This document shows positions 744 to 15,680 of a stretch of DNA of 16,351 bases, piece by piece. This DNA is from Myxococcota bacterium. Its GTDB lineage: Bacteria > Myxococcota_A > UBA796 > CAJQPC01. The DNA lies in the NCBI GenBank assembly GCA_036229005.1, contig JAZAMN010000038.1, positions 1 through 16,351 of the forward strand, written 5' to 3'. How positions within the stretch are numbered: position 1 is the stretch's first letter; the number at the start of each line of letters is the position of its first letter. Made by a program: the position numbers and the translations under genes. The notes beneath the pieces are model-generated. The model saw only the letters and a program-made list of their open reading frames with translations, was not told the DNA's origin and ran no database searches.

Positions 744-2912
744 ATGCTCCCCGTCCTGCTCCTGGCTCTCGGCGCCCAGGCCGCTGAGCCCCACTACAGC
801 TACCCCAAGCTCGTGACGGCCAACGGCTACGGCGTCGCGGTGTTCAACGCGTCGGGGGCGTCGGGCGCGGTGGTGGAGCTGTTCTCGGATCACCTCTACC
901 AGCAGTACAGCCCCGAGTCCGCGCCCACGCGCGATCTCATGTACGACAGCTACTTCGGCCTGCGCACGGACAGCCAGCACGGGTGGCTCACCGAGGCCAG
1001 CGACTGGGGGATGCTCACGGGCTCCAACGTGATGTGGATGGACCGCAGCCAGGGAGACCTGGCGGTCACCGAGTACGCCTTCGCGCCGATGGACTTCGAG
1101 GCACCAGTGCTGGTGCAGCTCCTGCGGATCGAGAACACGGGCGCCAGCGCGCAGTCCCTGAGCGCCTACTCACTGCACAACCTGCACGTGGGCGACGACA
1201 GCAACGAGAACGAGTACATCCAGCCGCGCGACGGCGGGCTCTACGTGGGCGGGCAGAACAGCTCGCTGGGATTCGACATGGTCCCGCTCGTGGCGCCGAG
1301 CCGCACGGACTGCACGCCCAACAACCCCTGGTACGCGGTGGGAGAGGGCTGGGACCTGGACCAGTGCTCTGGGTCCAACGGCGATGACCGCGTGGGCGCC
1401 ATGCAGTGGGATGTGGAGCTGGGCGCCGGCGAGGTGACCTGGGTGGGCGTCGTGTTGGCCTTCTCCAGCGGGTGGGGCGACCAGACGGACGAGGTGTCCT
1501 CGTTTGTGGGCGGGCGCGCTCCAGAGGCGCTGCTGGCCGATGAGCAGCAGTGGTGGGCCGACTGGCAGGCAGAGGGCGAGATCCCCTCGACCCTGAGCGA
1601 AGAAGAGAAGGAGGTCTACCTGCAGGCCCTGGCCTTCCTCAAGATGGGGCAGGTGCGGGAGGAGGGCGACGCCTACGGGCAGGTGCTCGCGAGCCTGCCG
1701 CTGTCCGCGCCGGTGGGCAACTTCCAGCACATCTGGAACATCGCCTGGGTGCGCGATGGGGCCTACGGGATCCGCGGGCTGTCGCGCTCCGGTCACCACG
1801 AGGAGGCCCGCGCGGCCCTGGCCTTCCAGGTGCAGGAGGGCAAGACGGGGGAGTGGCGCAGCTACGTGGCGGGCATGGACCACGCCCTGAGCGTGTGTCG
1901 CATCTACGGGAACGGGCAGGAGTGGACGGACGTCGACCAGGACGGGCCGAACATCGAGTACGACAACTTCGGGCTCTACCTGTGGGCGGCGGGGATGTAC
2001 GTGCAGGAGTCCGGGGACACTGACTTTGTGGTGGAGCACCAGGCGGCGCTGTTCGACCGCACCGCGGACGTGCTGGTGCGCCTGATCGAGCCCGAGACGG
2101 GTCTGCTGGCGCCGGACTCCTCGATCTGGGAGGAGCACTGGAACGGACACCAGAAGCACTTCACCTACTCGTCCCTCTGGGGCGTGCGCGGGCTGCGGGA
2201 GGCCGCGAACATGGCTGAGGCCATCGGGGAGACCGAGAAGGCCGCGGAGTACCGCGCAGAGGCGGACGGGCTGGCGACGGCCATCGCCGAGCAGCTCGTG
2301 AACCAGGACGGCGTGCTGATGGGCAACCTGGAGGAGTACCAGGACGGCGCCCCCGCGCTGGACCTGGCCGCGGTGGACGCCTTCAACAACGGGACCCTGG
2401 ACCCGCGCAGCGCGGAGTTCGCCAGCAGCTACGCGGCCTGGAACGACGGCCTGCGGGTGCCCCACGGCAAGGGCTTCGCGCGGAACGACGACGGGGACCT
2501 CTACGACTCCCACGAGTGGCTGATGATCGACCTGCGCGTGGCCGAGGCGCTGCGGCGGGCCTGCCGGGAGGACGAGGCCGCGGAGCTCGAGGACTGGATC
2601 ACCGCCCAGGCCCAGCAGAACAAGCTGATCGTGCCGGAGCTCTTTGACCCGGACAACGCCGACTACGCCGGGCCGGCCCCCATGATGGGCTTCGGCTCGG
2701 GACTCTACGTGCTGCAGATGCACACCCGCCAGGACCTGAGCGGGGAGTGCGGGAGCTGGGACACCGCGGGGGACGACACGGGCGGCCCCTACGTCACCCA
2801 GCCCGCCTGCGGCTGTGCAAGCAAGCGCTCGGGGGCCCCGGTGGGGGCGGCTCTGGGCATGGGACTGGCCGCCTTGATGGTGCTGTCCCGGAGGAAGAAC
2901 ACATGGGCCTGA
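744..2912 (+). CDS. Secreted GH15-family glucoamylase-like hydrolase with a C-terminal MYXO-CTERM-like sorting signal
   Basis: 722 aa with strong GC3 bias and a GGAG RBS. Signal peptide MLPVLLLALGAQA. GH15 motifs AWVRDG, DSSIWEE (catalytic acid region) and VPEL (base region). C-terminal ACGCAS + hydrophobic helix + RRK. Confidence 0.85.
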   Translation: MLPVLLLALGAQAAEPHYSYPKLVTANGYGVAVFNASGASGAVVELFSDHLYQQYSPESAPTRDLMYDSYFGLRTDSQHGWLTEASDWGMLTGSNVMWMDRSQGDLAVTEYAFAPMDFEAPVLVQLLRIENTGASAQSLSAYSLHNLHVGDDSNENEYIQPRDGGLYVGGQNSSLGFDMVPLVAPSRTDCTPNNPWYAVGEGWDLDQCSGSNGDDRVGAMQWDVELGAGEVTWVGVVLAFSSGWGDQTDEVSSFVGGRAPEALLADEQQWWADWQAEGEIPSTLSEEEKEVYLQALAFLKMGQVREEGDAYGQVLASLPLSAPVGNFQHIWNIAWVRDGAYGIRGLSRSGHHEEARAALAFQVQEGKTGEWRSYVAGMDHALSVCRIYGNGQEWTDVDQDGPNIEYDNFGLYLWAAGMYVQESGDTDFVVEHQAALFDRTADVLVRLIEPETGLLAPDSSIWEEHWNGHQKHFTYSSLWGVRGLREAANMAEAIGETEKAAEYRAEADGLATAIAEQLVNQDGVLMGNLEEYQDGAPALDLAAVDAFNNGTLDPRSAEFASSYAAWNDGLRVPHGKGFARNDDGDLYDSHEWLMIDLRVAEALRRACREDEAAELEDWITAQAQQNKLIVPELFDPDNADYAGPAPMMGFGSGLYVLQMHTRQDLSGECGSWDTAGDDTGGPYVTQPACGCASKRSGAPVGAALGMGLAALMVLSRRKNTWA

Positions 2913-4744
2913 GCGCATCCCTTCTCACCCTGCTCTCCTGCGTGGACCCCGGCGCGTACGCCGAGGACCCGGTGCTGGAGACCCACGTGGACGACTGGCG
3001 CGACGAGGTCATCTACCAGATCCTGGTCGACCGCTTCGCCAACGGCGACGTCAACAACGACTACAACGTCACCGAGAACCCCGAGGTGCTCGCCCGCTAC
3101 ATGGGCGGCGACTACCAGGGCGTCATCGACAACGTGGACTACCTGAACGCGCTGGGTGTGACCGCGGTCTGGATCTCGCCGGTGGTCGTCAACGTCGAAG
3201 AGGACGCCGGCGTCGCCAGCTACCACGGCTACTGGACCCAGGACTTCACCGGGGTGAACCCGCACTTTGGCGATCTGGTCAAGCTGCGCGAGATGGTCGA
3301 TGTGCTGCACGACAACGGCATCGTCGTCATCCTGGACATCGTCGTGAACCACGTGGGGCAGCTCTTCTACTACGACATCAACCGCAACGGGCAGGCGGAC
3401 TCCACGGTCTACGGCTCGGGCGCGGACGGCGACGCCCTGGAGATCATCTCCGAGTGGGACCCGGCCTACGACTCCCGGCGGGTGCAGGGCTGGACCTCCC
3501 TGGGCGAGAGCGGGGACGCGCCCCTGAACTGGGTCTACATGCCGGAGCTCAACCGCATGCCCCCGGAGCCCGCCGAGTTCCACAACGACGACTGGTACAA
3601 CCGCCGCGGGCGCGTGACCGACTGGAGCCAGCGCGACCAGGTGGAGAAGGGGGACTTCCCCGGCGGCCTCAAGGACCTGGACACCACCAACCCGGCGGTG
3701 CAGCAGGCGCTGATCGACGTGTTCTCCTACTGGATCACGGCGACCGACATCGACGGCTTCCGCATCGACACCCTCAAGCACGTCGAGAACGACTTCTGGA
3801 ACACCTTCGCCCCGGCCATCCGGCAGAACGCCGCGGCGGCGGGCAAGGACCGTTTCCTGATGTTCGGCGAGGCCTTCGACGGCAGCGACGCGCTGATCGG
3901 CAGCTACACCTGCGACACCGTCTCGGACAACCTGGGCAAGTACCCGGACGAGAGCAGCGACGGGCAGTACGTGGGCTGCAGCCACCAGGACCACAGCGGC
4001 GGCGAGAGCTACCAGGGCGTGGACTCGGTGTTCTACTTCTCGCAGAAGTTCCAGGTCTACGACGACGTCTTCAAGTACGGCGGCGCGACCTCCAAGATCG
4101 AGGCCCTGGTCGCCGCCCGCGAGCAGAACTACGGCAGCGAGCCAAAGGAGCGCGGCGCCGGTCACGCCCCCCGGGACATCCTGGTCAACTTCATCGACAA
4201 CCACGACATCCCGCGCTTTCTGTACGACCAACCCAGCGTGCCGGCCCTCAAGAACGCGCTCTTCTTCCTGCTGACCCAGGACGGCATCCCGTGCATCTAC
4301 TACGGGACCGAGCAGGGCTTCCACGGCGGCAACGACCCGGCCAACCGCGAGCCCCTGTGGGAGAGCGGCTTCGACCAGAACGGGGACCTCTTCGTCCACA
4401 CCCAGAGCCTGATCGCGCTGCGAAAGGAGCTGGAGCCGCTGAGGCGAGGGGACTTCAACACCCGCTGGGCATCCGACCGCACCGCCTCGGAGGAGGACGC
4501 CGGCATCTACGCCTTTGAGCGCGCGACCGACAGCGAGGTCGTGCTGGTCGTGCTCAACGTCAACGACGACCAGACCTCCCACACCGGCTGGCAGGGCGCG
4601 GGCATGCCCGTGAGCTTCGCGCCGGGGACCACCCTGGTCGAGGTCTGGCCCACAGACAGCCAGCGCACCTTCACCGTGGGCAGCGACAGCACCGTCATCG
4701 TGGACGTCGGGCCCCGCGGCGGCAGCGTCCTGGTCGCCCAGTAG
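2903..4744 (+). CDS. GH13 alpha-amylase family glycoside hydrolase, probable lipoprotein
   Basis: Start placed at ATG 2903 (GGAGG at 2890-2894; overlaps the GH15 gene by 10 nt). Lipobox-like LLS-C. GH13 conserved regions DIVVNH, DGFRIDTLKH, FGEAF and FIDNHD, plus IYQILVDRF, YHGYW and GIPCIYYGTEQG. Confidence 0.92.
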   Translation: MGLSASLLTLLSCVDPGAYAEDPVLETHVDDWRDEVIYQILVDRFANGDVNNDYNVTENPEVLARYMGGDYQGVIDNVDYLNALGVTAVWISPVVVNVEEDAGVASYHGYWTQDFTGVNPHFGDLVKLREMVDVLHDNGIVVILDIVVNHVGQLFYYDINRNGQADSTVYGSGADGDALEIISEWDPAYDSRRVQGWTSLGESGDAPLNWVYMPELNRMPPEPAEFHNDDWYNRRGRVTDWSQRDQVEKGDFPGGLKDLDTTNPAVQQALIDVFSYWITATDIDGFRIDTLKHVENDFWNTFAPAIRQNAAAAGKDRFLMFGEAFDGSDALIGSYTCDTVSDNLGKYPDESSDGQYVGCSHQDHSGGESYQGVDSVFYFSQKFQVYDDVFKYGGATSKIEALVAAREQNYGSEPKERGAGHAPRDILVNFIDNHDIPRFLYDQPSVPALKNALFFLLTQDGIPCIYYGTEQGFHGGNDPANREPLWESGFDQNGDLFVHTQSLIALRKELEPLRRGDFNTRWASDRTASEEDAGIYAFERATDSEVVLVVLNVNDDQTSHTGWQGAGMPVSFAPGTTLVEVWPTDSQRTFTVGSDSTVIVDVGPRGGSVLVAQ

Positions 4745-4774
4745 GGCAGCGCCAGGTCTACTGGGGCGCTGTCT
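4744..4774. terminator. GC-rich stem between convergent stop codons, possible terminator
   Basis: GGCAGCGCC ... GGCGCTGTC arms span the 13-bp gap between the convergent genes. No U-tract. Confidence 0.25.
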
Positions 4775-7700
4775 CGACCGCGCCCCGGGGCGCGGGGTTG
4801 AAGCCCTCCGGCCACACCGTGGACTCGTTCCAGAGGGCCCCCTTGAGGCGGGCGCCCTCCAGGTGGGCGTCCCGCAGGTTGGCTCCGCGCAGGTCTGCGT
4901 CCCGCAGGTCGGCGCCCGTGAAGAAGGTCATCGCCAGCTCCGCGTTCCGCAGGTCGGCGCCCCGCAGGTTGGCCCCGTCAAAGTGGGCGCGGCGGGCCTT
5001 GATGGTGCGCAGGTTGGCGTTGCGCAGGTCGGCCTCGTCCAGGTGGGCCTCGCGCAGGGAGACCCCCTGGAGGGTCACCCCCTGGGCGTCCAGCCGCTGG
5101 AGCTGGCTCTTGTCCATCACCGTGCCGTTTGCGAAGGTGGCGCCCTCGAAGTTGGCCTCCATGAAGCCCATGCGCTCCATGCTCATGCGCCGCGTGAACT
5201 CCCGGCCGGAGAGGTCCACCCCGTCCGCGTGGCCGGTGGGCCCGAAGGCGCCGTGGGGCGGCATCCCGGGCCAGACGGTGTTCTCGTCGAAGGTCGCGGC
5301 CAGCCAGTGGGCCTGGGACACGTCGCAGCCGGAGAAGTCGGCCATGCGGAGCTGCGCGCCCTCGAAGTGGGCGCCCTCCAGTTTGGCCTGGCTCAGGTTG
5401 GCCGCGAGCAGGCTGGCCCCGCGCAGGTCCGCGCCCTCCAGGCGGGCGTAGGACAGGTCGGCCTGCTCCAGGTCCGCGCCCACGAGCTGCGCGAAGCGGA
5501 GATCCGCGCTCTGGAGCTGCGCGCCCAGGAAGAAGGGCTGGTCCACCTGGAGGTCCAGCAGGTTGGTGCCCCCCAGGCGCGCCCGCTCGCTGTGCAGGGC
5601 CGAGCGCGCGTGGGCCCGCAGGGTGTCGATGGTGTGGAAGTTCTCCGGGAGCTGGCCCACCACGACGCCCAGCATCAAGAAGGCCACCGGCATCGCGCCG
5701 ATCATCAGCTTGCGCTGGGTGCTGCGGCGGCGGGTCAGGAGCTGCTGCTCCAGCCAGCTATCGTTGTGGAGCTCGCGGGAGCGCCGCAGGAACTCCTCCT
5801 CGGCCTCCGTGCGCAGCACCAGGGAGTCGGCGTGGCGCTGGACCACGTCAAAGAACTCCACCGGGAGCAGCTCTTCGTCCCGCTGGCCGCCCCGCAGCCA
5901 CAGGTCGAAGCTGAGCTGGAAGCGGTGCCGCGCCGCGTTGCGCTCGCCGCTCTCCTCGCCGTACTGCTGGATCCGCTGGATCAGGGCCTCGTGGGCGATG
6001 CGGTAGCTGCGCTCCCCCGGGTAGCGGGGGTCGGTGAAGCCCTGGATCAGGCGCCAGCGGTTCTCGAGCTGCCGCAGCACCCGCTTGCGCGCGCTCACGT
6101 CCTGGACCCCGCGCAGCAGCTCGGACTCGGGGGCTGGCCGGGAGGTCGCGGAGCCGGGCAGGTGGGTGAGGGCCCGCAGGATCTCCTTGGCCTGGTTGCC
6201 GGCGGCGTCCTCCAGCCCCGCGATGGCCTCGTCGAGGATGCGGGCCAGGATGCCCCGAGCGCCCCCCAGCCCCTGGCGGTAGTGCGCACGGGTGATGCGC
6301 ACCGGGGTCTGGTCCTTCGCCAGCTCCCAGAGGCGCGAGCCCACGGCCTGGATGCGCGGCGCGACCTCTCCGGCGGGGTCGGCCAGCAGGTCGTCCACGA
6401 TCTCGTCCAGCAGGCCGTCCTCGAAGGAGAAGGGGGCGTAGTCCACCGCGAGCCCCGGGCGACCCGGACCCGACAGGGCCTCCAGGATGTCCCCGCGCGC
6501 CAGCGGCCGCAGCGGCATGGTGCGGAAGAGCTCGTCCAGCGGCAGGTCGTCCAGGGTGCGGAGCAGGGCGCCCAGGTAGTCCTCGCGCAGGCTGAACAGC
6601 ACGCGGGTGTCCGAGCGGGTGCGCAGCAGCAGGTGCAGGCCCTCCGCGAACGCGCGCTGCTGCTCCCCGCTCCCGCCGGTGAACAGCTCCTCGAGCTGGT
6701 CCATCACCAGACAGACCGGGCGGCCGAGCTGCAGGGAGAGCGTGTCCAGGATCTCGGCCATGGGCTGGTTGGGCGCGCTCGCGGTGCTGCGGGAGAGCAG
6801 GCGGCGGGCCTGGGCGCGCAGGTCGCTGAGGGGGGCCTGGCCGCCCCGGACCACCAGCAGCTCGTGCTCGAGCTGCGCCAGCGCCGGCACGATGCGCGCA
6901 TACAGGAAGGAGGTCTTTCCAACACCCGAGCGCCCGGTGATGGCCACCACTGGCGGCCGGTCCGGGTGCTGCCAGATCTCCAGGAAGCGCCGGCTGTCCC
7001 CATCCCGCCCAAAGAAGAGCTCCGAGGTGCTCTCCGAGAAGGGCGCCAGGAAGCGGAAGGGCTCGGTGGGGCGCTGGAGGCTGCGGGTGCGGCTGGCCTG
7101 CGCGGTGGGGCGCCGCTGGAGCGCGGTCAGGGTCGCGATGACCTCGGCCCAGTCGCGCGGGCGCTGGTCCGGATCCTTGGCCAGCAGCCGGTAGACCAGC
7201 TCGACCAGATCCCCGGGGCAGTCGCTGACCAGGGCGCCCAGGGGCGGCGGCTCCTTGTGGACGTGCGCCTGCAGGTAGTCCTGGACGCTCTCCTCCTCGA
7301 AGGGGGCGCGGCCCGCCAGCATCTCGTAGAGCACGCAGCCGAAGGCGTAGAGATCCGCCCGGTGGTCCACCTTCCAGCACAGCGCCTGCTCGGGGCTCAT
7401 GTACCGCGGGGTCCCCACCAACGCGCCCGGGCTGGTCAAGCGCGCCGGCGACAGCTCCAGGGGTTCGGGGGCGGCGGTCGGGTCGGACATGCCCTGAGGG
7501 GTCTCCGCGGTGGGGACGTCCTGGGAGCTCCCGTGCCACGACACCCCATCCCAGGTCTGGTCGGCCAGGGGACCGGGCGGCGGCGTCAGCGTGTCCTGGC
7601 TGGTGTGGCCCAGCGGCAGGCGCTCCACCGAGTTGCGCAGCGCCTCCGGGATCGAGGCCCGGTCGGGGAACGCGCTCCCCTCCGTCAACGCCTGGTCCTG

Positions 7701-8177
7701 CAGGAAGGCCAGACCGAAGTCCAGGATCTTCACCCGCTCGTCCGGCGGCTCGCCCAGCACCGTGATGTTCTCGGGCTTGAGGTCGCGGTGCACCAGCCCC
7801 ACGCCCTGTCCGGCCCCCATGCCCCGCGCCACCTGCAGGCCCAGGTCCACCGCCCGCTGGGGACGCAGAGGGCCCTCGCGCCGCATGAGCTGGGCCAGGG
7901 TGACGCCCTCCAGCAGCTCCATCACCAGGAAGCGCTGGCCGCTGGGCGCGGTGCCCACGTCGAACACCGTCACCACGTTGGGGTGCTGCAGCCGGCAGGT
8001 GGTGCGGGCCTCCTGCTCAAAGCGCGCGACCACCTCGGGACGCACCGTCAGCTCCGGGCGCAGCAGCTTGATCGCCACCCGCCGGTCCAGGGCCTTCTGC
8101 ACGCCCTCGAAGACCTCGCCGACGCCACCACGCCCGATGCGTGCGGTCAGCTCATAGCGCTCGTCGAGGTGGATCAT
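4758..8177 (-). CDS. Hanks-type Ser/Thr kinase fused to an nSTAND1-like P-loop ATPase, one TM helix and C-terminal pentapeptide repeats (1139 aa)
   Basis: Start placed at ATG 8177 (MIHLDERY). Kinase motifs GRGGVG, VAIK, HRDLKPEN, DFG, GTPRYMSPE and DLYAFG. STAND motifs PF.FL..F...FFGR, Walker A GRSGVGKT (6935-6912), Walker B LVMDQLEE, SLREDY and IAHEAL. Hydrophobic helix at 5708-5655. A(D/N)Lxx repeats at ~5580-4830. Confidence 0.9.
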   Translation of the reverse strand: MIHLDERYELTARIGRGGVGEVFEGVQKALDRRVAIKLLRPELTVRPEVVARFEQEARTTCRLQHPNVVTVFDVGTAPSGQRFLVMELLEGVTLAQLMRREGPLRPQRAVDLGLQVARGMGAGQGVGLVHRDLKPENITVLGEPPDERVKILDFGLAFLQDQALTEGSAFPDRASIPEALRNSVERLPLGHTSQDTLTPPPGPLADQTWDGVSWHGSSQDVPTAETPQGMSDPTAAPEPLELSPARLTSPGALVGTPRYMSPEQALCWKVDHRADLYAFGCVLYEMLAGRAPFEEESVQDYLQAHVHKEPPPLGALVSDCPGDLVELVYRLLAKDPDQRPRDWAEVIATLTALQRRPTAQASRTRSLQRPTEPFRFLAPFSESTSELFFGRDGDSRRFLEIWQHPDRPPVVAITGRSGVGKTSFLYARIVPALAQLEHELLVVRGGQAPLSDLRAQARRLLSRSTASAPNQPMAEILDTLSLQLGRPVCLVMDQLEELFTGGSGEQQRAFAEGLHLLLRTRSDTRVLFSLREDYLGALLRTLDDLPLDELFRTMPLRPLARGDILEALSGPGRPGLAVDYAPFSFEDGLLDEIVDDLLADPAGEVAPRIQAVGSRLWELAKDQTPVRITRAHYRQGLGGARGILARILDEAIAGLEDAAGNQAKEILRALTHLPGSATSRPAPESELLRGVQDVSARKRVLRQLENRWRLIQGFTDPRYPGERSYRIAHEALIQRIQQYGEESGERNAARHRFQLSFDLWLRGGQRDEELLPVEFFDVVQRHADSLVLRTEAEEEFLRRSRELHNDSWLEQQLLTRRRSTQRKLMIGAMPVAFLMLGVVVGQLPENFHTIDTLRAHARSALHSERARLGGTNLLDLQVDQPFFLGAQLQSADLRFAQLVGADLEQADLSYARLEGADLRGASLLAANLSQAKLEGAHFEGAQLRMADFSGCDVSQAHWLAATFDENTVWPGMPPHGAFGPTGHADGVDLSGREFTRRMSMERMGFMEANFEGATFANGTVMDKSQLQRLDAQGVTLQGVSLREAHLDEADLRNANLRTIKARRAHFDGANLRGADLRNAELAMTFFTGADLRDADLRGANLRDAHLEGARLKGALWNESTVWPEGFNPAPRGAVETAPQ

Positions 8178-8184
8178 CAGGCAG

Positions 8185-8190
8185 AGTGTA
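8185..8190 (-). promoter_or_regulatory. Candidate -10 box TACACT for a leaderless kinase transcript
   Basis: TAnnnT hexamer ends 7 nt upstream of ATG 8177. No Shine-Dalgarno in the 19-bp divergent gap. Confidence 0.5.
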
Positions 8191-8196
8191 CCGGCG

Positions 8197-9213
8197 ATGC
8201 TCTTCCTCCTGCTGCTCTCCTGCCGCGCCAGCGCCCCGGAACTGCCCACCGGATCGTGGATCCTGGAGGGGGAGTCCGTGTCCGGACAGCTGCGCGTGGA
8301 CGCTTCGGGGTGTCGCCTGGGCCTCTGGGGCGCCGCGTTCACCACCGGACCGCACCTGCGCGTGTGCACTGCGAGCCGCGATGACAGCGGGCTGTGGCTC
8401 TATGTCCCGATCCGCTCGGGCTCCGGCGAGGGCCAGGCCGCCCTGCTCTGGGAGGGCGAGCGCCTCACTCTCCCGCTGGGGGCGAGGGGAGGGGAGTTCG
8501 ACGTGCAGCTCGCCCTCACCCCCGGGGATCTCTCCGCCCCCCAACAGCAGGCACTCTCCGGCGCAGCCGAGGACACGCTGATTCAGTGGGAGGACGCCTG
8601 GACCCTGGGCAGCTTCCGCCTGCAGGCCGGCGACACCCTGGTCGGGGAGCTGCACTTCCAGGGCGAGGCCCCGCCGGTGGTCGGCCTCTACGACCCCTCG
8701 TGGATGACCCGCGGCCTGGTCCCCACCCAGGCGCACGTCCAGGGCCCCGAGTTCATCCTGGAGCTGCCCGTGATGCCCTCCCTGCAGGGCGAGCTCGGCG
8801 TGCTGCGCGTCAACCGCCTGCTGGGCCGCGTGGTGGTGCCCCTGGACGAGGCGCCCACCCCCTACGACCGCCAACTCCAGCTCGTCCCCGGCCAGGTCAG
8901 CGCCCCGGAGCGCGAGGCCACCGTGCAGGCCGCCCTGGACGAGAGCCTGCGCCGGGAGGCCGAGCTGCTCCAGTCGCTCCTCGCCGATGCCTACCGGTCC
9001 AACGGGCCGTGTCCGCACCCGCTGACCCCGGAGTTGGGGGCCGCATTGACCGGCTACTCCGTCACCGCCTCCCCCCTGGAACATGGCGCGTGCGAGCTGC
9101 TGGTGGAGCCGACGGAGGTGCAGCATGGGCGGCGCGTGAGCCTGCGCTTTGGCCCGGATGGCGTGCGCGCGGAGCTGCGGCGGGAGCTCGGGCTGGACTT
9201 CACCCTGGAATAG
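8197..9213 (+). CDS. Hypothetical lipoprotein with two tandem ~119-aa beta-rich repeats
   Basis: 338 aa with GC3 bias. MLFLLLLS-C lipobox-like start. Internal similarity RLTLPLG..FDVQLALTPGDLSAPQQQA vs RVVVPLD..YDRQLQLVPGQVSAPEREA. Confidence 0.8.
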   Translation: MLFLLLLSCRASAPELPTGSWILEGESVSGQLRVDASGCRLGLWGAAFTTGPHLRVCTASRDDSGLWLYVPIRSGSGEGQAALLWEGERLTLPLGARGGEFDVQLALTPGDLSAPQQQALSGAAEDTLIQWEDAWTLGSFRLQAGDTLVGELHFQGEAPPVVGLYDPSWMTRGLVPTQAHVQGPEFILELPVMPSLQGELGVLRVNRLLGRVVVPLDEAPTPYDRQLQLVPGQVSAPEREATVQAALDESLRREAELLQSLLADAYRSNGPCPHPLTPELGAALTGYSVTASPLEHGACELLVEPTEVQHGRRVSLRFGPDGVRAELRRELGLDFTLE

Positions 9214-9763: not shown

Positions 9764-10804
<1,041 letters not shown>

Positions 10805-10868
10805 ACGGGCCGCACGCCTGCATGCCGGGCGCGCGTGACTGCTGCGCAGATGGCCGGTCCAAGGCCCC

Positions 10869-12992
10869 ATGCTGCTGCTCATTCCCGCCCTCGCCCTGGC
10901 CGAGCCCGCCGAGCTCTCGGTGTGGCACAGCTACCGCGGCGCCGAGCGGGAGGCCCTGGAGCAGGTGCTCGCCGACTACGACGCCGCCCACCCGGAGCTC
11001 AAGGTGGTCCCCCTGGCGGTGCCCACCGAGTCCTTCGCGTCCAAGCTGGAGGCGGCGGCCCCCCGGGGGAACGGGCCGGAGCTCTTCATCGCGGCCAGCG
11101 AGCGCATCGGGAGCTGGTCGGCTTCCGGCATCGTGGAGCCCCTGGTCATCGACGAGGCGGCCTACCATCCGGTGACCGTGGACGGCGTGCGCTGGCAGGA
11201 GCAGACCTGGGGCGTGCCCTTGGCCAGCAAGTGCCTCGCGCTCTACTACAACCGGGACCTGGTGACCTCGCCGCCGCAGACGACGGATGCGCTGCTGGAG
11301 CTGGCCGGATCCCAGCGGGGTGGGGACCGATATGGGCTGGCCTACGAGGCCGCCTCTCCCTACTTCAACGCCGCCTGGCTGCACGGCTACGGCGGGGGGC
11401 TCTTCACCGCCGGCGCGCCCACCCTGGACAGCCCCGAGAACGCCGCCGCGATGGCCTTCGTGCTGGGCATGGTCGAGGGCGACCTGCTGCCCCAGGAGCC
11501 CACCGGCGCGCTGGTGACCCAGCTCTTCAACGCCGGGCAGGCGGCCATGGTCATCAACGGGCCGTGGATGCTGGGGGAGATCGACCCCAGCGTGGACTTC
11601 GCCATCGCGCCGCTGCCGCTGGTGTCCGAGACCGGGCAGCCCGCTGCGCCCTACGTCACGGTCGAGGCCGCGTTCGTCAGTGCCTACGCCAAGCACCCGG
11701 ATGAAGCGGCAGAGTTGGCCCGTGCTCTGGGGGTGGGGGAGGCCGCCATCGCCCGCGGGGTGCAGGGCCGGCAGACCGTCGCGGAGCTGGCCGCCTGGGA
11801 GGACCCCCGCCTGTCCCAAGACCCGATCCTGGGGGCCTTCAAGGCGCAGCTCGACCGGGGCGTGCCCATGCCCCTGCGCCCGGAGATGGGGGCCACCTGG
11901 GAGCCCATGGCCAAGGCCTGGAGGCGGGTGCTGCGCGGGGCGATGCCTCCGGAGATGGCCCTGTCCGCCGCCCAGACCGAGCTGGAGATCGTGACCCGCC
12001 CGCCGCCCCCCGCGGTGGACTGGCGCCCCTACGCGGCCGTGCTGGGGCTGGGCCTGCTGGGGGTGTTCGGCTGGATCGGCCACAGCGCCTGGCAGCAGCG
12101 CCGGGAGATCGCCCTCTGGCGGCACGCCTACGCCTACGTGGCCCCCGCCGCCCTGGCGATGGGCGCCCTGGTGCTCCTGCCCTTCATCGTGGGCGCCGGC
12201 GTCTCCTTCTTCGCGCACCAGGACGGCAGCTTCACCTTCGTCGGGATCCAGCACTACCTGGACATCGTGCTGGCGCGGGACTGGGCGGTGACCAGCCCCC
12301 AGAGCTTCTGGTTCACCCTTGCGGTGACCGTGCTCTGGACCGTCGCGAACGTGGTCCTGCACGTAGGCCTGGGCGTGGGCCTGGCGATGCTCCTGCGGGA
12401 GAAGTGGGTGCGCATGCGGGGCGTGTTCCGCGTGCTGCTCATCCTGCCCTGGGCCATCCCCAACTACATCACCGCGCTGATCTGGAAGGGCATGTTCCAC
12501 CGCCAGTTCGGCGCCATCAACGGCCTGCTGGTGGCCCTGGGCGCCGAGCCCGTGAGCTGGTTCGGCAGCTTCTGGACGGCCTTCGCGGCCAACCTGACCA
12601 CCAACACCTGGCTGGGCTTCCCCTTCATGATGGTGGTGACCCTGGGCGCCCTCCAGTCCATCCCCCGGGACCTGGAGGACGCGGCCGAGGTCGACGGCGC
12701 CAGCGGCTGGCAGCGCTTCCGGCACATCACGCTCCCGCTGCTGCGGCCCGCGCTGCTGCCGGCGGTCATCCTGGGGTCCGTCTGGACCTTCAACATGTTC
12801 AACGTGATCTACCTGGTCTCCGGCGGCGAGCCCGACGGCAGCACGGAGATCCTGGTGTCCGAGGCCTACCGCTGGGCCTTCACCCGCCAGCACCAGTACG
12901 GCTACGCGTCCGCATACGCGGTGCTGATCTTTGGCGTACTGCTGCTCTACAGCCGGGCGATGAACCGCATCGCCGGCCAGAAGGTGCTCTGA
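10869..12992 (+). CDS. malF: Fused maltose/maltodextrin solute-binding protein and ABC permease (MalE-MalF fusion)
   Basis: Signal peptide; MalE-like N-terminal ~375 aa (LSVWH, ALYYNRDL, FNAGQAAMVINGPW, PMPLRPEM); Pro linker PPPP; multi-TM permease with LILPWAIP, WLGFPFMM and the EAA loop DLEDAAEVDGAS. One uninterrupted frame. Confidence 0.92.
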   Translation: MLLLIPALALAEPAELSVWHSYRGAEREALEQVLADYDAAHPELKVVPLAVPTESFASKLEAAAPRGNGPELFIAASERIGSWSASGIVEPLVIDEAAYHPVTVDGVRWQEQTWGVPLASKCLALYYNRDLVTSPPQTTDALLELAGSQRGGDRYGLAYEAASPYFNAAWLHGYGGGLFTAGAPTLDSPENAAAMAFVLGMVEGDLLPQEPTGALVTQLFNAGQAAMVINGPWMLGEIDPSVDFAIAPLPLVSETGQPAAPYVTVEAAFVSAYAKHPDEAAELARALGVGEAAIARGVQGRQTVAELAAWEDPRLSQDPILGAFKAQLDRGVPMPLRPEMGATWEPMAKAWRRVLRGAMPPEMALSAAQTELEIVTRPPPPAVDWRPYAAVLGLGLLGVFGWIGHSAWQQRREIALWRHAYAYVAPAALAMGALVLLPFIVGAGVSFFAHQDGSFTFVGIQHYLDIVLARDWAVTSPQSFWFTLAVTVLWTVANVVLHVGLGVGLAMLLREKWVRMRGVFRVLLILPWAIPNYITALIWKGMFHRQFGAINGLLVALGAEPVSWFGSFWTAFAANLTTNTWLGFPFMMVVTLGALQSIPRDLEDAAEVDGASGWQRFRHITLPLLRPALLPAVILGSVWTFNMFNVIYLVSGGEPDGSTEILVSEAYRWAFTRQHQYGYASAYAVLIFGVLLLYSRAMNRIAGQKVL

Positions 12993-13849
12993 TGGCCCAG
13001 GGTCGCGAGGTCTCCATCTGGCGCCTGGTGGGCACCCACCTGCTGCTGGTCGTGTTCACGCTGCTGACGCTCTACCCCATCCTGTGGGTGGTCGACATGG
13101 CCCTGACCCCCGGGCAGGCCTTCGCGATGGACCCCATCCCCTGGCCCTCGGATCCCAGCCTGGAGCACTTCCGGGCGGTGATCGGCACAGAGACCGCCGA
13201 CGGGCGCTGGCTCTTCGGGCGGCAGCTCCTGAACTCCCTGATCGTGGCCGGGGTGACCTCGCTGTTGGGGATCAGCCTGGCGGCGACCGCGGGCTACGCG
13301 ATGTCGCGGTGGGCCTTCCCGGGGCGGGACGTGGGCATGGCCCTCTTCCTCATCACGCAGATGTTCCCGGGCGTCGTGATGGCGGTGCCGCTCTACATCC
13401 TGCTGGACGAGCTCTCCATGCTCGACTCCATGCTGGGGCTGGCGCTGGTCTACGCGACGACCTCGGTGCCCTTCTGCACCTGGAACCTCAAGGGCTACTT
13501 CGACACCCTGCCGGTGGACCTGGAGGAGGCCGCGCTCATGGACGGCGCGTCCCGCTGGACCACCTTCTGGCGCATCCTGCTGCCCCTGTCCAAGCCCGCG
13601 CTGGTCGTGACCGGGCTGTTCTCCTTCATGACCGCGTGGAACGAGTTCATCCTTGCGGCGACCTTCCTGGGCAAGGAAGAGCGCTTCACCCTGCCGGTGG
13701 TCCTCAACGGCTACGTGGGCGACTTCGGGACCGACTGGGGAAGCTTCGCGGCCGCCGCCATCCTGGTCTCCCTGCCGGTGCTGGCCCTGTTCTTTGCGCT
13801 GCAGCGGCAGCTTGTCGAAGGGCTGACGGCGGGGTCGGTCAAGGGCTGA
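12992..13849 (+). CDS. malG: Maltose/maltodextrin ABC transporter permease MalG
   Basis: Start at the TGATG overlap with the upstream stop; 285 aa. Motifs QMFP, LKGYFDTLP, EAA loop DLEEAALMDGAS, FMTAWNEF and terminal GLTAGSVKG. Confidence 0.93.
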   Translation: MAQGREVSIWRLVGTHLLLVVFTLLTLYPILWVVDMALTPGQAFAMDPIPWPSDPSLEHFRAVIGTETADGRWLFGRQLLNSLIVAGVTSLLGISLAATAGYAMSRWAFPGRDVGMALFLITQMFPGVVMAVPLYILLDELSMLDSMLGLALVYATTSVPFCTWNLKGYFDTLPVDLEEAALMDGASRWTTFWRILLPLSKPALVVTGLFSFMTAWNEFILAATFLGKEERFTLPVVLNGYVGDFGTDWGSFAAAAILVSLPVLALFFALQRQLVEGLTAGSVKG

Positions 13850-13880: not shown

Positions 13881-15680
13881 ATGAAGAAGACGGTCCTGGT
13901 CCTGAGCGCTCTCGGTCTCACCTCTCTGGCCGGCCTGGCCCTCGCGCAGGAGCCTCCAGTCTCCGTCGAGGTCCTCTCAGGGCGCTGCGAGGCGGGGGAG
14001 GCGATCGCCTGCCGCGAGCTGGGGGACGCATGGCGCTTCAAGCGAGGCACGGAGCGGTGGGACACCCAGGAGGCCGCGGCCGCCTACGAGAAGGGCTGCG
14101 CCGCCGAGGACCTGGACTCCTGCGCGCGCCTGGGCCACCTGCTGCAGTACGGCATGGGGGTGGAGCAGGACCGGGCCCGCGCCCTGGAGCTCTACCAGCA
14201 GGGCTGCGAGGCCGATCGGGGCTTCGCGTGCGCCGGGCTCGGCACCCTCTACGAGCGGGGCTGGGAGGTCGAGCTGGACCTGAATCGCGCAACCGAGCTC
14301 TTCCAGCAGGCCTGCGAGATGGGCTCGGCGCGTGGCTGCGTGGCCTTGGGCGACGCCTACCGGGAGGGCCAGGGGCTGGAGGCGGACGCCAGCTACGCGC
14401 TGCTCTACTACAACCGCGCCTGTGAGGGCGGGTGGGGCGCAGCGTGCTCCCGGCTCGGGGACATGTACGAGGACGGGGACGGCGTGGACGCCGACCTGCA
14501 GCGGGCGGTGCAGAGCTACGAGCGGGGCTGCGCGCTGGGGGACGGCTGGTCGTGCACCCAGGCCGAGACCCAGGGCTTCGCGCTGTCCGAGCCCACCCCC
14601 GAGGAGGCGCTGAAGGGCCTGGAGGGGCTCTGTGATGCCCGCGCCGAGGGGGCCTGCGTCACCCTGGCCCAGGCGCTGGACGAGGGCCGCTGGGGCATCG
14701 CCGAGGACGCCCGGGGTGCGCTGGGGCTGCTCAAGGCGGAGTGCGAAGGGGGAGACTCCTTCGCCTGCGGCTACCAGGCCCGGCTGGCCTTCATGGGGCG
14801 GGGAATGGAGGCCGACAGCCGCCTGGCGGCGGACCTCTGGCAGGGCGCCTGCGACGACGGCGACGGTCAGAGCTGCACCGCCCTGGGCAACCTGATGGAG
14901 ATGGATCTGCTGCCGGGGGACGCGGTCGAGGCCTGCGACCTCTACGCCACGGCCTGCGAGTCCCGCTGGGGCGAGGGCTGCCGGGAGCTGGGGCTCTGCT
15001 TCGAGTCCGGCATGGGCCGCTCCGTGGACAAGGTCCGCGCCGCCGGGCTCTACCAGGAGGCCTGCGAGAAGGGCTCCGGGCGGGGCTGTGCCTTCGCGGG
15101 GAACATGTTCAGCTGGGGGGCCGGCGTGGACGCGGACCCGCTGGCCGCCGTGGACTGGTACCGCCGGGGCTGTGAGCTGGACCAGGACCCCAACGCCTGC
15201 CTGGCCCTGGGCCGCGCCTACGAGACGGGCATGGGCGTGGACAGCGACACCGCGCAGGCGCTGGAGCTCTACAGCGCGGTCTGCGCGCGCGGCGACATGG
15301 AGGGCTGCGTGGCCGAGGGCGTGTTCCACGCCACCGGGGCATCTGGGCAGGTCGACTACGACGTGGCCGCCGAGCGCTTCGAGCAGGCCTGCGAGGGGGA
15401 CTTCGCCGCGGGCTGCAGCTTCCTGGGGGCCCTCTACCTGGGCGGCCAGGGGGTGCGGCAGGACGACGAGTTGGGGGCCATGAACATCGCCCGCGGCTGC
15501 GAGCTGGGCCACGACGAGGGCTGCATGCACCTGGGCATGCTCTACGCCGAGGGCCGCGGCCTGGAGCGCGACAAGAAGCGCGCCTACGCCGCCCTGGAGC
15601 TGGGCTGCATCTTGGGCTCCGAGGAGGCCTGCCTGCTCAGCGAGGAGAAGTGGCGGCGCCTCAAGCGCCTGTCACGGTAG
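13881..15680 (+). CDS. Secreted Cys-rich Sel1-like repeat protein (Hcp-like)
   Basis: Start placed at ATG 13881 (signal peptide MKKTVLVLSALGLTSLAGLALA). About 16 Cx7C pairs within ~36-aa repeats of the type C..G...AC..LG..Y..G.GV..D...A...Y...C. Confidence 0.9.
   Translation: MKKTVLVLSALGLTSLAGLALAQEPPVSVEVLSGRCEAGEAIACRELGDAWRFKRGTERWDTQEAAAAYEKGCAAEDLDSCARLGHLLQYGMGVEQDRARALELYQQGCEADRGFACAGLGTLYERGWEVELDLNRATELFQQACEMGSARGCVALGDAYREGQGLEADASYALLYYNRACEGGWGAACSRLGDMYEDGDGVDADLQRAVQSYERGCALGDGWSCTQAETQGFALSEPTPEEALKGLEGLCDARAEGACVTLAQALDEGRWGIAEDARGALGLLKAECEGGDSFACGYQARLAFMGRGMEADSRLAADLWQGACDDGDGQSCTALGNLMEMDLLPGDAVEACDLYATACESRWGEGCRELGLCFESGMGRSVDKVRAAGLYQEACEKGSGRGCAFAGNMFSWGAGVDADPLAAVDWYRRGCELDQDPNACLALGRAYETGMGVDSDTAQALELYSAVCARGDMEGCVAEGVFHATGASGQVDYDVAAERFEQACEGDFAAGCSFLGALYLGGQGVRQDDELGAMNIARGCELGHDEGCMHLGMLYAEGRGLERDKKRAYAALELGCILGSEEACLLSEEKWRRLKRLSR

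Follow-up and report, generated by a model that had tools for sequence, protein, structure and literature searches.

The window analysed here is a stretch of 16,351 nucleotides from a Myxococcota bacterium (contig JAZAMN010000038.1 of assembly GCA_036229005.1), with about 70% GC in a host genome of 6.4 Mb. A single open reading frame at 4758-8177, on the reverse strand, encodes a protein of 1139 amino acids (aa), called here the 4758-8177 protein, in which Pfam, hydropathy and AlphaFold place in order an RD kinase, an nSTAND1 ATPase, an arginine cluster, one hydrophobic helix and a pentapeptide beta-helix. We somewhat favour reading it as a single-pass inner-membrane receptor kinase that senses the cell envelope and is gated by a STAND switch.

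An earlier note on this DNA had described an intact RD kinase, an intact STAND P-loop module of the nSTAND1 class, a single hydrophobic helix after a basic cluster and about 290 aa of pentapeptide repeats, with the kinase and ATPase inside, the beta-helix outside and the layout of a one-component receptor. That description is borne out, the receptor layout being supported by the STAND fold, the topology and the cysteine pairs given below. Four features are added to it: an insert in the activation segment, a GxxxG-Q motif in the helix, the cysteine pairs of most homologues and a lipoprotein gene that lies 19 bp from the kinase gene in head-to-head orientation. The features of the protein are the following, TM standing for transmembrane.

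4758..8177 (-): 1139-aa kinase-nSTAND1-TM-pentapeptide protein (single open reading frame, Pfam, 81 homologues)
7128..8156 (-): Hanks-type RD Ser/Thr kinase, aa 8-350 (Pfam Pkinase 133.2 bits, PknB fold, conserved motifs)
7443..7700 (-): acidic Ser/Thr/Pro-rich insert in the activation segment, aa 160-245 (low model confidence)
5877..7061 (-): nSTAND1 nucleoside triphosphatase module with nucleotide-binding, helical and winged-helix domains, aa 373-767 (PF20703, fold model)
6912..6935 (-): Walker A, aa 415-422 (GRSGVGKTS motif at 415-423)
6687..6710 (-): Walker B, LVMDQLEE, aa 490-497
5706..5876 (-): aa 768-824, a linker of helices followed by a long juxtamembrane helix with the Arg cluster at its end (modelled as helix 791-825)
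5649..5705 (-): predicted transmembrane helix, aa 825-843, with G837xxxG841-Q842 (hydropathy, conservation, AlphaFold)
5598..5636 (-): short helix after the transmembrane helix, aa 848-860, not a second one (model, hydropathy)
4818..5582 (-): pentapeptide-repeat beta-helix, aa 866-1120, predicted periplasmic (Pfam, model, paired Cys of homologues)

Domains and membrane topology

A search with aa 370-1139 returned 81 homologues (P0003-P0083; 43-60% identity, some partial), after which the score fell sharply from 518 to 290 bits. The protein and these homologues form the 82-row alignment to which the fractions in this section refer, the near-identical P0002 being left out. The score gap recurred among the full-length matches of a profile search against 1.84 billion representatives, which also gave 28,823 distant hits at E<=1e-10. 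The start codon is the ATG at 8177, where homologue N-termini coincide and which has a TACACT box 7 nt upstream; a longer start, GTG at 8369, was rejected as it would overlap the lipoprotein gene and homologues begin at 8177. The AlphaFold2 model of the full-length protein (71-row alignment) has a mean pLDDT (predicted local distance difference test) of 85.2 and a pTM (predicted template modelling score) of 0.47, by which the domains are confident and their mutual arrangement is not. One RNA run (0.05 share; four short scattered contigs, one of them over the repeats) does not amount to evidence of transcription of the gene.

The motifs of the kinase are complete: GxGxxG at 15-20, K37, E56, HRDLKPEN at 130-137, DFG at 153-155, SPE at 261-263 and D275. 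Catalytic residues are conserved in the rows that have a residue (K37 70/70, D132 73/73, D153 73/74), and the closest fold is PknB (1mru; Z 31.0, root-mean-square deviation (rmsd) 2.2, 258 aligned). By its motifs this is a Hanks-type RD kinase and is predicted to be active. The insert in its activation segment is of low complexity and about 85 aa long (pLDDT <50 at 189-248); across 66 full-length members it spans 6-104 aa, with a mean pairwise identity of 16% and a median net charge of -7.

The ATPase matches PF20703 (nSTAND1) with 159.5 bits against a cut-off of 27.1, over profile positions 1-378 of 379. Walker A is invariant at G415 (77/77 rows with a residue), G420 and K421 (79/79 each), and Walker B at D493, Q494, E496 and E497 (82/82 each). 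R531 is likewise found in 82/82 rows, and P607 and H729 are also invariant (alignment A1 or the 82-row alignment); these three we take to be the sensor Arg after strand 4, the GxP-like motif and the winged-helix His of STAND proteins. The fold was compared with a separate model of aa 370-810 (pTM 0.72). The top matches were NRC2 (Z 15.9, rmsd 5.9, 308 aligned), NLRP2 (15.4) and MalT (15.3, rmsd 5.8, 296 aligned), tied within 1, followed by Apaf-1 (14.4) and Avs4 (12.7; Avs3/4/5 span 11.9-13.7), with Orc1/Cdc6 proteins near behind in the ranking (14.3-14.8). Fold searches with the full-length model gave lists filled by kinases, and no PDB entry matched the STAND part by sequence. According to the model, the ATPase is of the STAND class, with the nucleotide-binding, helical and winged-helix domains in the predicted fold.

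The 19 residues at 825-843 are the sole strongly hydrophobic window of the protein (Kyte-Doolittle hydropathy, KD, 2.03; runner-up 1.07) and lie just behind the basic cluster at 815-823. The helix was called from hydropathy, family conservation and the AlphaFold model. In the model the long helix 791-825 continues into a helix at 828-845, followed by the short helix 848-860 and then by the beta-helix. G837 and G841 are found in 82/82 rows and Q842 in 81/82. The membrane helix has a KD of at least 1.6 in 67/82 rows, and the best window of the short helix stays below 1.6 in 82/82. Lys plus Arg in the 15 residues before the membrane helix averages 5.3 vs 2.0 after it, being higher before than after in 71/82 rows and equal in 7.

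Cysteines after the helix occur strictly as pairs. Columns 1097 and 1117, which are separated by 20 residues or one coil, both hold Cys in 66 rows, neither in 11 and a single one in 0 (5 rows uncovered); two more pairs are also strict, 976/987 (9 both, 0 single) and 944/964, 20 residues apart (3 both, 0 single). Strict pairing was found in none of 23 cytoplasmic column pairs and none of 25 mixed pairs (best 29 both, 15 single). A quick tree shows joint loss of the main pair in three or more separate clades, among them that of the 4758-8177 protein. As the alignment rows are related, Fisher values overstate the association, and the argument lies in the repeated joint losses and gains. The host genome encodes BamA, DsbA-like and VKOR proteins. 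Disulfide-bearing pentapeptide proteins outside the cytoplasm have been described (PMC8145042; PMC12864828; here and below, papers cited by identifier are represented by the accessible parts of their text). Because the post-helix cysteines are strictly paired, the charge bias is positive-inside and no second transmembrane helix is present, the sequences argue strongly for an N-in, C-out single-pass topology, with kinase and ATPase cytoplasmic and the beta-helix predicted periplasmic. As a separate observation, the VKOR and DsbA-like matches share one frame of 451 codons in the host genome (G000:C11:239853-240905 (+)), a probable fusion.

The final ~290 aa match PF00805 (Pentapeptide) with 131.3 bits in five stretches. 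At least eight A(D/N)Lxx repeats are present, arranged in two beta-helix blocks that each end in a TxW(P) cap. When near-identical variants are compared within 10 clusters, 3.7% of sites vary in this rod vs 3.1% in the STAND module, and the rod is invariant in 6 of the 10 clusters; the family has no hypervariable sensor. Many pentapeptide repeats were also seen in another frame of the host genome, of 2094 codons (G000:C31:22581-25589 (-)).

Family, inheritance and neighbouring genes

Orthologues were identified in 19 of 127 genomes of the order, belonging to families f1, f5 and f6, with a single copy in each and one copy split over two contigs. Outside these, the matches in 300 genomes sampled across the phylum reach only 29-36%. 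A pattern scan of the host contigs found a single real locus; 70 of the 73 kinase-profile matches of this genome are above cut-off, and the only nSTAND1 match above cut-off is the 4758-8177 protein. Presence is mostly all-or-none by genus (g1 3/3, g6 4/4, g9 3/3, g3 0/4, g4 0/3), with genus g30 mixed (present in G385, missing in G047). Kinase and lipoprotein trees of 12 loci each recovered genera g1, g6 and g9 with support of 98-100. The pattern looks housekeeping-like: one copy, a fixed chromosomal site and vertical inheritance by genus. The taxon labels of the homologues conflict, being Myxococcota or Deltaproteobacteria in some sources and Alphaproteobacteria or Proteobacteria in others; the lineage is probably related to the myxobacteria.

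Beyond the family, 144 distant nSTAND1 proteins were collected (141 from the profile search, 3 from the homologue search), 132 of which have a full match and enough downstream sequence. A hydrophobic helix preceded by Arg was found in 60 of the 132, beginning within 15 residues of the profile end in 53, and all 21 relatives identified as kinases by a strict motif, which gives too low a count, carry it. In 32 proteins chosen for Pfam the helix is followed by WD40, TPR, PQQ/FG-GAP, PEGA, dCache, FGE or pentapeptide domains, and upstream of the ATPase kinase, SIR2, cyclase or trypsin domains were identified in the distant relatives, with caspase also seen. The predicted transmembrane nSTAND1 layout is a common chassis. 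dCache is a classic extracytoplasmic sensor domain; P0231 is a kinase-nSTAND1-TM protein with a dCache domain predicted outside, for which tractable ligands make a good test case.

The 4758-8177 gene is surrounded by the following features.

8197..9213 (+): divergent predicted lipoprotein gene, 338 aa, of no known family, a possible partner (lipobox by eye, head-to-head conservation)
8185..8190 (-): TACACT, -10-like box of a predicted leaderless promoter, 7 nt before the kinase ATG (TANNNT conservation)
744-4744 and 9764-13849 (+): maltodextrin cluster comprising a GH15 glucoamylase-like gene, a GH13 amylase, malK, a malE-malF fusion and malG (Pfam)

The lipoprotein gene is head-to-head with the kinase gene in 18 of 19 testable genomes, within 4.2 kb, and is separated from it by about 70 bp or less in 8 of 13 measured loci (21 orthologue-bearing genomes were examined, G002 and G056 being cut by contig ends). 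In G386 the kinase is present and the lipoprotein gene is not found within 6.5 kb upstream. The lipoprotein is single-copy in 41 of 61 relatives, the kinase being missing in 26 of those 41, and is older and wider than the kinase. An obligate pairing of the two was rejected on these 26 genomes and on G386. No Pfam family was common to 30 aligned lipoprotein members and no PDB match was obtained; leads to a pilin-like identity for the C-terminal part (0.85-0.86) were rejected as below the bar of 0.9. C272, C299 and a QHGRR motif are invariant in the lipoprotein family.

A TANNNT box lies 6-9 nt upstream of the kinase start in 9 of 12 loci, and several loci show, by eye, a second box on the opposite strand facing the lipoprotein. 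In the host genome such boxes peak at 6 nt before the start (185 of 3069 called genes), which suggests widespread leaderless mRNA; a scan for sigma-70 promoters and terminators found nothing. Overlapping promoters could alone hold the gene pair together, so that adjacency is no proof of partnership.

The malE-malF fusion (solute-binding protein and permease) was identified in 51 of 61 relatives irrespective of the kinase, and a functional tie of the kinase to the maltodextrin cluster is for this reason not supported. After malG lies a gene for a secreted-looking Sel1-repeat protein, 13881-15680 (+). The 93 neighbours from 10 loci gave 15 PADLOC hits, all partial and read as generic (ABC ATPase, amylase, kinase, helicase, nucleotide-binding and one methylase-like). 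EAD, Trypco1 and diversity-generating retroelement genes were not recognised among the neighbours, these families not having been searched for in all loci. The kinase gene lies outside defence islands, with no enrichment of defence genes around it.

Other arrangements were observed in the relatives. A 1510-aa kinase-AAA-TPR-GAF-sigma54 activator (L050:931-5463 (-)) lies near the lipoprotein gene, upstream of malK, in several genomes without the receptor kinase; its substitution for the kinase was considered, the two being exclusive in family f5 (4 vs 3 genomes), and was rejected as both occur in G004, G008 and G018. Near the lipoprotein in families f4-f6 (L029, L046, L047, L051, L052, L060) there are two phage-baseplate/VgrG OB-fold genes (Phage_base_V for the one scanned), in some a small protein that is PAAR-like by eye, and a conserved gene of no assigned family. 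In one genome (L025:5528-7140 (+)) a small helix-turn-helix gene and a gene that is HipA-like by eye are inserted downstream of the kinase.

Proposed mode of action and rival explanations

Kinase and ATPase retain their catalytic residues, and the N-in, C-out topology would place the beta-helix in the periplasm. Protomers may pack through the membrane helix, as its invariant GxxxG-Q and general knowledge of this motif suggest. A change in the rod by binding, deformation or proteolysis would be passed through the long helix 791-845 to the winged-helix/helical region, where, as in STAND biology, an ADP-bound resting state would be released and ATP-bound modules would oligomerise. Once clustered in this way, the kinase domains might, like PknB-type kinases, phosphorylate one another on T248, T256 and the Ser/Thr-rich insert of the activation segment, as well as cytoplasmic targets. 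Oligomerisation, signalling direction and the envelope stimulus are inferred by analogy. Sensing of envelope state is the likely role of the rod, because distant relatives place dCache, PQQ/FG-GAP, PEGA, WD40, TPR and FGE domains after the same helix and because a secreted, Cys-paired pentapeptide protein controls envelope-stress signalling in Caulobacter (PMC12864828). The output is likely the ordinary physiology of the lineage and not suicide defence, as the gene is single-copy, mostly all-or-none by genus and has the same neighbour in 18 of 19 testable genomes.

Several observations weigh against this reading. Conservation is low at the rod positions that face outward (i+1 mostly 19-46%), mean pairwise identity of the two repeat blocks is 37-42% vs 58-68% for the kinase and 55-64% for the STAND module (66 full-length rows), and the ectodomain varies in length from 252 to 378 aa; with low conservation and variable length a spacer fits as well as a sensor. 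The hydrophobicity of the helix is moderate, with a KD below 1.6 in 15/82 rows and a minimum of 0.98, and the 4758-8177 protein itself is without the main Cys pair (R1097/N1117). Coupling between the domains is not readable from the full-length model. Whole genera (g3, g4) are without the gene, which is thus dispensable, and nSTAND1 was defined within predicted counter-invader systems (PMC8195603).

The rod could instead be an anchor or spacer, the STAND module being controlled from inside by a cytoplasmic or membrane cue such as nucleotide state or a partner, an explanation that we consider unlikely. Conservation of the helical/winged-helix part (64% mean identity) equals that of the kinase and is not shared by the surface of the rod, MalT ranks with the best fold matches, and the malK-malEF-malG cluster is 1.6 kb away and also near several orthologous loci. 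MalK controls MalT, and a similar partnership could be imagined here. Nevertheless malK is near the lipoprotein even where the kinase is absent, and as both malK and the fusion are present without the kinase the maltodextrin link looks like old synteny; moreover, relatives swap recognised sensor domains into the place of the rod.

Improbable in our judgement is an NLR-like immune receptor, the rod of which would detect periplasmic structures of phages or predators and the kinase of which would shut the cell down. Its case is drawn from the predicted conflict systems in which nSTAND1 was defined, from the kinase effectors, pentapeptide sensors or TM regions noted for bacterial NACHT proteins (10.1101/2022.07.19.500537), from the SIR2, caspase or trypsin effectors of close non-family relatives and from the Avs3/4/5 fold matches. 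It is opposed by the generic character of the partial PADLOC hits around the gene, by the single copy at a fixed site, by the absence of excess variation in the rod and by the PADLOC matches of the protein itself, the best 25 of 33 all lying in the kinase. Of the three stimuli that the earlier note had offered (envelope, contact or anti-phage sensing), the anti-phage one comes out as the least supported on the grounds of single copy, fixed locus, lack of a defence neighbourhood and lack of excess variation in the repeats. A wholly cytoplasmic or peripheral protein with a Qnr/MfpA-like DNA mimic or scaffold is very improbable: both blocks of the rod carry a net negative charge (medians -5 and -7), some members have a weak helix and a single unpaired Cys follows the helix of the 4758-8177 protein, but the strict pairing of post-helix cysteines, the positive-inside bias, the lack of a second TM helix and the scores for Qnr (60.5 bits vs a cut-off of 240) and MfpA (55.4 vs 360) speak against it.

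The envelope-sensing receptor kinase might also be half of a two-gene trans-envelope NLR pathway, in which the lipoprotein, expressed from back-to-back leaderless promoters, would be a periplasmic ligand or co-receptor of the rod, switching the membrane STAND oligomer and its kinase. We hold this to be doubtful. If true, it would make a non-immune NLR an envelope-surveillance receptor kinase and a model for thousands of nSTAND1-TM proteins.

Comparison with known systems

The closest catalogued architectures are those of Kaur, Iyer, Burroughs and Aravind (2021; PMC8195603), whose Figure 2-source data 1 has nSTAND1 with TM at 461 text places, including Pkinase+nSTAND1+TM+BetaPropeller (Chloroflexi), Pkinase+nSTAND1+TM+EP1 (Kofleriaceae) and CASPASE+nSTAND1+TM+Pentapeptide (cyanobacteria). 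The 4758-8177 protein has the effector-nSTAND1-(TM)-repeat architecture of that study. In the accessible supplement no kinase with pentapeptide was found among 42 kinase+nSTAND1, 13 nSTAND1+Pentapeptide and 6 TM+Pentapeptide places, where PDF line breaks could hide a row. The 12 membrane-related passages of the accessible text do not discuss nSTAND1 proteins as receptors, and the 4758-8177 family differs in being single-copy and stably placed. The "undescribed system" of the earlier note is thereby weakened: the effector-nSTAND1-TM-repeat chassis was already catalogued, and the Arg cluster and helix recur in the 60 distant relatives, whereas the combination of kinase and pentapeptide and the orthologous family are new as far as that source is accessible. 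No description of the family or experiment on it was found in the literature searched (subscription papers lay outside the search), nor was an experimental study of the nSTAND1-TM class.

Kinase effectors, pentapeptide sensors and TM regions are named among bacterial NACHT proteins in 10.1101/2022.07.19.500537, and a periplasmic sensor was predicted for one NACHT target in PMC10907252. PMC13581612 describes many STAND clades as non-defence, with no mention of pentapeptide in its accessible text; that of 10.1101/2025.01.12.632604 mentions neither STAND nor pentapeptide. Avs and bNACHT proteins share the effector-STAND-repeat order and the STAND fold. They differ in that their tested sensors recognise phage proteins inside the cytoplasm, whereas the repeat of the 4758-8177 protein is predicted across the membrane and its gene neighbourhood does not resemble that of a defence system.

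SpkB (Slr1697) and other cyanobacterial kinase-pentapeptide proteins also join a Ser/Thr kinase to pentapeptide repeats; the role of SpkB is motility and not defence, and the accessible text lists no STAND module for SpkB-type proteins (PMC2176072). Caulobacter YjbI shares the extracytoplasmic pentapeptide beta-helix, the conserved Cys pairs and a part in envelope-stress signalling, but is a separate secreted outer-membrane protein that acts via two-component systems, with no kinase or STAND fusion (PMC12864828). What extracytoplasmic pentapeptide beta-helices sense is, according to PMC8145042 in its accessible parts, undefined for nearly all such proteins.

PknB/Stk1 has the same RD kinase inside, single helix and outside repeat domain and is the nearest solved kinase fold. 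In the 4758-8177 protein, by contrast, the STAND module stands between kinase and membrane and a beta-helix takes the place of PASTA, for which no Pfam hit was obtained (PknB/Stk1 NCBIfam 263.7 bits vs a cut-off of 450). MalT is a non-immune STAND switch with a matching fold, and a maltodextrin cluster lies near the 4758-8177 gene. MalT is soluble, with a DNA-binding output, whereas the 4758-8177 protein carries a kinase and a membrane helix. The NLR and STAND sensors tested in the literature surveyed act inside the cell, and a large bacterial class puts its repeats across the membrane; in this class the 4758-8177 family has unusually clean Cys-pair evidence for repeats predicted outside, looks like vertically kept signalling rather than immunity, and would offer a compact one-gene test of a STAND switch driven across the membrane and coupled to a kinase.

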